A stretch of 64,000 nucleotides of DNA, taken from assembly GCF_001447785.1 (NCBI RefSeq), contig NW_015165236.1, forward strand, positions 1,367,998-1,431,997, read 5' to 3'. Origin of the DNA: Gekko japonicus (lineage: Eukaryota). The position numbers and the translations under genes were made by a program. Shown here in pieces: positions 36,130-36,578 of the stretch. The notes under the pieces were generated by a model. The model made no database searches. It saw nothing but the letters and a program-made list of their open reading frames with translations, and was not told the DNA's origin. Numbering within the stretch: position 1 is the first letter of the stretch; every line of letters begins with the position of its first letter.

Positions 36130-36410
36130 TGGTGTAGTGGTTAAGTGCGCGGACTCTAATCTGGGAGAACCGGGTTTGATTCCTCACTTTTCCACGTGCA
36201 CCTGCTGGATGACCTTGGGCAAGCCGTAGTTCTGTCAAGAGCTGTTCTTGAAAAAGAGCCAGTTCCAGTCAAGAGCTCTCTCTGCCCCACCCGCCTCACA
36301 GGGTGTCTCTTGTGGAGAGGGGAAGGGAGTTTGTAAGCCGCTCTGAGACTCCTTTGGGTAGTGAAGGGCCGTGGGGTATAAATCCAATGTCTTCTTCTTC
36401 TTCTTCTTCC
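36130..36410 (+). mobile_element. Squam3-like SINE whose (CTT)n tail abuts INTS15 exon 3
   Basis: Same family; the tail runs directly into CAG at 36410-36412. Confidence 0.85.
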
Positions 36411-36412
36411 AG

Positions 36413-36578
36413 CGGACCCCGACGGTGTACTGCGTGAGGCTGGCCCAGGCCTTGGTGGACGACTACTGCAGCCTGGTGCCCGGCTCCGTCCAGACCCTGA
36501 GGCAGATCTTCAGCGCCAGCCCACGCTTCTGCTGCCAGTTCATCACGTCGGTCACCGTGCTGTACGACATGTCCTCAG
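36413..36578 (+). CDS. INTS15: INTS15 exon 3 (RTPTVYCVRLAQALVDDYC...YDMSS)
   Basis: AG/GTAAC, 166 nt. Confidence 0.92.

Follow-up and report, generated by a model that had tools for sequence, protein, structure and literature searches.

Squam3 SINEs carry a 3' end derived from an L2 LINE, and their body bears a (CTT)n, (TAAA)n or (GTT)n tail depending on subfamily and species (PMC7983390, Table 1). For the subfamily Squam3B3 about 180,000 copies were reported in Gekko japonicus, and target duplication occurs at a very low rate in Squam3 (PMC7983390). L2-type elements show 3' microhomology, found in about 80% of the ZfL2-2 copies (PMC2666801). They produce target duplications of about 3–5 bp and often carry extra 5' nucleotides (PMC4245944, PMC2666801). 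In the parts of PMC7983390 at hand no splicing role of Squam3B3 is described, and the word "intron" is absent from the follow-up paper (PMC10702118).

Splice signals donated by SINEs are known from mammals. The canine merle SINE was inserted in antisense orientation at the PMEL intron 10/exon 11 acceptor, which lies inside the target duplication. Its simple-repeat tail provides the tract, and the poly(T) precedes a cryptic AG that belongs to the body; alleles with short tails splice normally, while long tails exonize the SINE and give the phenotype (PMC7349775). Inverted Alu elements donate a tract and a branch point (CUAAU, left arm) to new, mostly alternative exons and show an orientation bias near exons, and antisense Alus 19–50 nt before an exon lead to skipping (PMC4315302, PMC2394776, PMC2533698). 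Mammalian SINEs are depleted within 20–100 nt of acceptors, where orientation and distance set the tolerance (PMC3088655, PMC6326789). Of the human branch points, 90% are found within 19–37 nt upstream of the acceptor; 78% are A and 22% are not (PMC4315302).

The 64,000-nucleotide stretch of Gekko japonicus DNA analyzed here (the window) contains three genes, all on the plus strand, as are the exons, splice signals and acceptor SINE copies described below unless indicated. An eight-exon model of the DNase1-like gene (18046–25214) was identical in 284 of 284 residues to the Gekko japonicus DNase1-like protein P0122. INTS15 spans positions 31888–42060, and NAA60 extends from 52850 with exons confirmed against PDB chains. 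A recount of internal coding acceptors gave 16 (DNase1 7, INTS15 5, NAA60 4), the same number as in the preliminary description. In INTS15 exon 4 the last codons and the donor were absent at 38816–38840 compared to the gecko orthologues (about residues 364–370 of P0001 unmatched), likely due to an assembly error or a local deletion, and exon 5 at 40839 was intact. INTS15 intron 3 harbors a tandem array of about 9.6 copies of a 97-nt unit (36987–37904). Elsewhere in the window, an exon-like stretch with a good donor at its end was observed on the minus strand (3478–3575). A fragment of about 2.3 kb at 7880–10190 presumably encodes part of a CR1-like reverse transcriptase. An array of 6.5 units of 135 nt (2266–3148), with tRNA-Ala-like heads on the minus strand, is probably a SINE-derived satellite.

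The clearest encounter of a SINE with an acceptor was found at INTS15 exon 3 (36413–36578), where the intron end reads GTATAAATCCAATG-T(CTT)6C-CAG/CGG (slash, exon boundary). Exon 2 (35149–35370, donor at 35371) was placed by tblastn to gecko orthologues and by RNA run X23, whose depth drops at 35370 from about 27 to 0; exon 3 was placed by orthologue alignment and an RNA depth of 34–54 in the same run. The exon 2/3 boundary (WLQ/RTPT) aligns without a gap to the INTS15 orthologues of two geckos. The acceptor CAG (36410–36412) thus stands at an ancestral exon boundary and comes from the host, be it the original CAG or a duplicate of it. Upstream of it follow the tail T(CTT)6C (36390–36409), which forms the entire pyrimidine tract, and the SINE body (36130–36389). 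At its very end, the tract may include a few host letters. Both the order of tail, CAG and exon and the SINE origin of the tract had been noted in the preliminary description and were confirmed, the order by the sequence and the orthologue boundary. Its placement of the only adenosines at about –33 to –25 was correct for a SINE origin at branch-point distance, but had to be shifted: the nearest upstream AG lies at 36365–36366, and the resulting AG-free zone of 44 nt contains adenosines only at –35, –33, –32, –31, –27 and –26 (36378–36387). These six adenosines likely include the branch point. As all 280 nt before the acceptor AG are SINE sequence containing 22 AGs, the branch point is very likely SINE-derived, with the exact nucleotide only predicted. 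The best candidate for U2 pairing, TATAAAT at –31, offers 4 of 6 pairings and lacks the U at –2, and the sole TNA among the SINE adenosines scores 2, so that the match to the branch consensus is only moderate.

What appears to be the old intron end is still visible further upstream (36060–36115). It consists of a branch-like GGCTAAA with the A at 36064, a pyrimidine-rich stretch and a CAG at 36113–36115, which may have been the original acceptor and would now be idle. Use of this CAG would add 297 nt to the transcript and a stop after 37 codons. A CCAGCG hexamer at 36112–36117, a candidate target-site duplication, is repeated at 36409–36414. The 12 nt separating the upstream hexamer from the SINE (36118–36129) may have been left over from the old tract or may have been added at the 5' junction. 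A search with INTS15 exon 3 identified two distant loci with 76% identity. One of them (L002) was considered as an empty site and rejected; it shares the exon start, but its intron end is unrelated. A further Squam3 copy, in antisense orientation in intron 1 (34584–34884, minus strand), could pair with the acceptor copy including its tail across exon 2. The predicted duplex reached –498 kcal/mol at a distance of 1246 nt, and a sense copy at 33966–34263, 321 nt away with –528 kcal/mol, would compete for the antisense copy.

The repeat at the INTS15 acceptor is a sense Squam3B3 SINE, the main SINE of the Gekkonidae, as judged from sequence comparison. Its tRNA-derived head, which lacks the first 11 nt, matched the Squam3GjB3 consensus by eye (PMC7983390, supplement 1), and the B3-specific insertion was present. 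The 260-nt body plus the missing 11 nt gives 271 nt, the length of Squam3B3 without tail. The (CTT)n tail, the gekkonid host and the rarity of target duplications (1 clear case among 12 copies in the window) fit this subfamily as well; 2,519 RNA reads derived from other copies run on with the same tail end. Within the window the repeat (36130–36409) matched 18 places. The 3'-end motif was present in 16 of them, corresponding to 14 independent copies when a tandem trimer (57334–58069) is counted once, and the INTS15 copy was about 7% diverged from the others. The family 3' end carries no AG. An Rfam search gave a sole match below threshold (E 0.35), no exact match of the SINE 3' end was found in metagenome contigs, and folding of this end was not more stable than that of shuffled sequences (z 0.83). 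The trimer, with a 222-nt Squam3B3 unit, resembles early SINE-derived satellites of geckos (PMC10702118).

Transcription across the acceptor was analyzed with two raw RNA runs (X23, X21) and two sets of DNA contigs (X1, X2). In X23 the INTS15 exons were covered at a depth of 26–54, while the unique intron bins at 35838–36105 had a depth of 0. About 27 reads leave at the donor 35370 and 48 reads pass from exon 3 (36578) into exon 4. The bin 36374–36440 showed a depth of 10.3. An exon start at 36413 predicts 11.3, a start at the following downstream AG 0.8, and one at the nearest upstream AG 27. We infer from these depths that 36413 is the main start of exon 3 and that the intron is not retained. 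The joint of exons 2 and 3 was absent among the best 15 of 41 INTS15 joints, and reads cut at 36383–36417 were noted. To a minor extent, AGs within the SINE or the upstream CAG may be used as well; such forms would be masked by reads of other SINE copies. In X21 the depth of the INTS15 exons was 2 or lower. On the DNA level, a contig of X1 leaves the unique intron and enters the SINE for 26 nt. Contigs of the exon, from X1 as well as X2, carry 40 more letters upstream of 36418, which fits the presence of the SINE tail in two individuals. No empty INTS15 allele was found among the joints listed.

We consider it probable that the sense Squam3B3 copy has replaced the tract and likely the branch point of INTS15 exon 3, with the exon apparently spliced as before. 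The insertion has moved the older intron end about 280 nt away and has put in its place an AG-free end of 44 nt with the six adenosines followed by a pure pyrimidine run. The splicing machinery, as the read depth suggests, would use the AG at 36411–36412 as main acceptor without retaining the intron. The insertion would have been tolerated as a sense copy, which rebuilds branch point and tract. In contrast, an antisense copy would bring an (AAG)n purine run and six AGs within the same 44 nt, which is why sense copies would be the ones to survive. By itself the element would make no acceptor, and the AG and the donor of a host exon would be required. Since the family 3' end is free of AG, the SINE likely replaces only branch point and tract and not a whole acceptor. 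It appears to stay within the INTS15 intron and to replace signals only at sites that already possess a host AG together with a defined exon.

Two further acceptors have a sense copy at or near them, which makes 3 of the 16, as described before; the pyrimidine runs end 0, 0 and 24 nt before the AG. At exon 3 of the DNase1-like gene (20386–20469) a sense Squam3B copy (20060–20385) ends in a 55-nt CTC/CTT run adjoining the CAG. Part of this run may be host tract, because it exceeds the tails of the other window copies (10–36 nt). The AG-free zone comprises 77 nt, with SINE adenosines at –59 to –68 and no A from –15 to –58, and these adenosines lie outside the 19–37 nt range of 90% of human branch points (PMC4315302). 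Here, replacement by the SINE is plausible only if the branch point is far away or not an A. A 32-nt tandem duplication was noted across the 5' junction of this SINE (20010–20073), and the exon 2 donor just upstream of it (19896) is a weak GTCTGT. The third and weaker case is NAA60 coding exon 2 (53824–53953), where the sense copy ends at 53798 (region 53529–53823). Past the tail end follow a host A at –25 in CCTTAG and a host tract of 21 nt. The junction from 52959 to 53824 was covered by 20 raw reads from three runs (14, 1 and 5) and also by an RNA contig, and the TTAG at 53799–53800 was absent as acceptor among the best 15 of 28 joints listed. A SINE branch point at –42 to –51 would favor this first AG, so the host signals of NAA60 exon 2 are probably still in use.

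Two observations concern other reads and sites near NAA60. At 53600–53619, 23 reads of X23 shared a 1-nt insertion and diverged at 53619 into one unrelated sequence; they represent a SINE fragment expressed elsewhere, from another SINE-bearing transcript. In an NAA60 intron (58040–58135) a sense SINE tail is followed by TAG (58070–58071) and, about 56 nt on, by GTGAGT, a potential cryptic exon of 56 nt. As main splice route this TAG was rejected: 46 reads from the NAA60 donor 55207 agreed at 0.98 with the true next exon.

The three acceptors thus represent one clear replacement (INTS15), one probable replacement (DNase1) and one near miss (NAA60), and textbook branch-point geometry was found only in INTS15, one of the three. 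The preliminary description had seen one recurrent pattern in three genes. This was not confirmed, given the distant adenosines of DNase1 and the own tract and A at –25 of NAA60. Its proposal of a replacement branch point and tract is supported for INTS15 and plausible, given a distant or non-A branch point, for DNase1, but is not needed for NAA60. The term "portable splice-acceptor cassette" was overstated, as the family end brings no AG of its own, no new splice site, exon or intron arose at the three sites, and the exon boundaries are ancestral.

Do these three cases exceed chance? The 16 coding introns comprise 23,110 nt with 10 independent SINE 3' ends. For two of these introns, those following INTS15 exon 4 and NAA60 coding exon 4, the start was set approximately, and the counts omit the two inner units of the trimer, the copy at 11142–11347 (no 3' end) and the 5' UTR introns. 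Eight of the 10 copies were in sense orientation (P = 0.055). Under a uniform null, 0.19 copies are expected within 30 nt of an acceptor and 0.06 within 10 nt, compared to 3 and 2 observed. The probability of at least 3 sense copies within 30 nt was 2e-4 with random orientation and 7e-4 given 8 sense copies; for at least 2 copies within 10 nt the values were 7e-4 and 1.8e-3. Clustering of Squam3B at the acceptors of the window exceeds the uniform null, with both cut-offs chosen post hoc.

The strongest competitor for the window as a whole is a simple one, to which we give little less than an even chance: insertion was near random, sense copies near acceptors were merely kept, and the window is dense in SINEs. 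This reading gains from the post hoc cut-offs, since multiplying P by the 17 windows considered from this genome leaves about 0.003–0.03, before other noticeable patterns are counted. The NAA60 case, which is not a replacement, and the tests of the flanks, which gave no significant result, point the same way. Against it stand the expected counts given above. Purifying selection only lowers density, and a real excess would thus need an insertion preference. With about equal probability, the excess of 2–3 copies may go back to a mild insertion preference for intron ends rich in pyrimidines or to luck in the choice of window.

A more far-reaching proposal, which we regard as rather unlikely, holds that reverse transcription is primed by the (CTT)n tail at pyrimidine tracts and that Squam3B is sense-enriched at acceptors throughout the genome, where it routinely replaces signals. 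The cluster above uniform chance, the inability of selection alone to produce an excess and the 3' microhomology of ZfL2-2 (PMC2666801) speak for it, as does the one clear target duplication of the window, the pyrimidine-rich 9-nt ATTTCCTTG of copy 54162–54464 (P = 0.004). The flanks contribute little. The pyrimidine content was 0.55 versus a background of 0.50 in the 5' flanks of 10 non-acceptor copies (P = 0.12, not significant) and 0.50 versus 0.47 in the 3' flanks of 11 such copies (P = 0.22, not significant), the latter comparison being biased to the null as host pyrimidines merge into the tail. The microhomology targeting assumed in the preliminary description keeps the excess over the uniform null, but lost ground with the flanks and with the length of pairing: a null model requiring 2–4 target pyrimidines left the cluster unexplained (P 0.001–0.007), and only one requiring 6–8 explained it (P 0.04–0.14), so that pairing of 6–8 nt would be required. 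The empty-site comparison it had suggested turned out against pyrimidine tracts for two non-acceptor copies. Copy 6733, located in a repeat with intact sisters, has deleted 5 nt of its target and overlaps it by CT, ahead of a run of A; for copy 60925, with an intact sister repeat at 60440–60560, a T overlap before AAAAC was found. Both reconstructable sites are A-rich with 1–2 nt of microhomology. In human and mouse, moreover, retroelements are depleted beside acceptors (PMC3088655). Targeting of pyrimidine tracts by the (CTT)n tail remains unproven.

For INTS15 itself a different history deserves attention, although it seems doubtful. The SINE may have landed 2 nt inside exon 3, with a 6-bp duplication of CCAGCG copying the acceptor behind the tail. 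In this equally doubtful sequel the old acceptor at 36113–36115 was kept upstream and out-competed, and the element splices itself out. The empty allele would then read ...ATTGCCAG/CGG, as opposed to ...GCCAGCGTTTGCCGCTCTC(y)CAG/CGG without a duplicated acceptor. The CCAGCG repeat, anchored at the tail end, has a chance probability of 1.6%, but of 10% in a looser survey applied evenly to 12 copies. The branch-like CTAA and the AG-free zone of 54 nt of the upstream copy favor this history; the location of its branch candidate at –52 speaks against it. Short duplications and extra 5' nucleotides would suit an L2-type element (PMC4245944, PMC2666801), and copy 60925–61230 has about 18 extra nt at its 5' junction, in which 12 nt of the 3' flank recur in inverted orientation (P = 0.001). 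In opposition to this, a clear duplication was seen in only 1 of the 12 copies, consistent with the very low rate in Squam3 (PMC7983390), and the 12 intervening nt are pyrimidines in 9 of 12 positions, as in an old tract. That the SINE was wrongly joined to INTS15 exon 3 is very improbable. The assembly is gapped, the expected 3' end and donor of exon 4 are missing, and none of the contigs listed spans the whole SINE. However, independent DNA contigs enter the SINE from the unique intron (X1) and, in X1 and X2, continue the exon upstream by 40 letters, and SINEs end at acceptors in three separate loci.

Replacement of tract and likely branch point at INTS15 exon 3, the preferred reading, can be extended to a general scheme that we offer as unlikely but worth stating. 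Squam3B would be self-neutralising: pyrimidine tracts would serve as priming sites for the sense (CTT)n tail, and the AG-free, A-bearing end would rebuild branch point and tract, in some cases behind an AG copied by duplication. Given a copy number of about 200,000, the 3' splice signals of constitutive exons might have been replaced in hundreds to thousands of cases in geckos and lacertids, with tracts that are now mutable microsatellites tuning splicing. INTS15 alone is a curiosity; spread over the genome, the process would amount to a new way in which splice signals turn over. Normally, a retroelement that inserts within 20 nt of an acceptor is purged or pathogenic. A pyrimidine-tailed sense SINE reverses this rule and can exchange core splice signals with the protein unchanged. 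The tail variants of Squam3 provide a built-in test of tail sequence versus tolerance and targeting.

Compared to the described systems, the INTS15 copy agrees with the Squam3B3 of Gekkonidae in head, B3 insertion, 271-nt length, (CTT)n tail and rare duplications (PMC7983390). Like the merle SINE it sits at an acceptor with a simple-repeat tail as tract (PMC7349775); as to the acceptor AG, which is duplicated in merle, CCAGCG occurs twice here (1.6–10% by chance). In contrast to merle, the gecko copy is in sense orientation, its tail touches the host AG downstream of the body instead of preceding a cryptic AG of the element, the body appears to remain intronic, and adenosines are placed at branch distance. 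Inverted Alus likewise donate tract and branch point, but they are antisense, use the poly(A) as tract and create new, mostly alternative exons (PMC4315302, PMC2394776, PMC2533698). All three gecko copies are sense, serve old exons with unchanged boundaries and leave the main acceptors to the host, with any minor SINE-containing mRNA forms masked by reads of other copies. The local excess at acceptors contrasts with the depletion in mammals (PMC3088655, PMC6326789). In a literature search that left most subscription journals outside, no lizard SINE and no sense-tail SINE building a native acceptor was found. SINE-donated splice signals as such are already known; what sets the gecko case apart is a sense, pyrimidine-tailed SINE that silently serves old exons.
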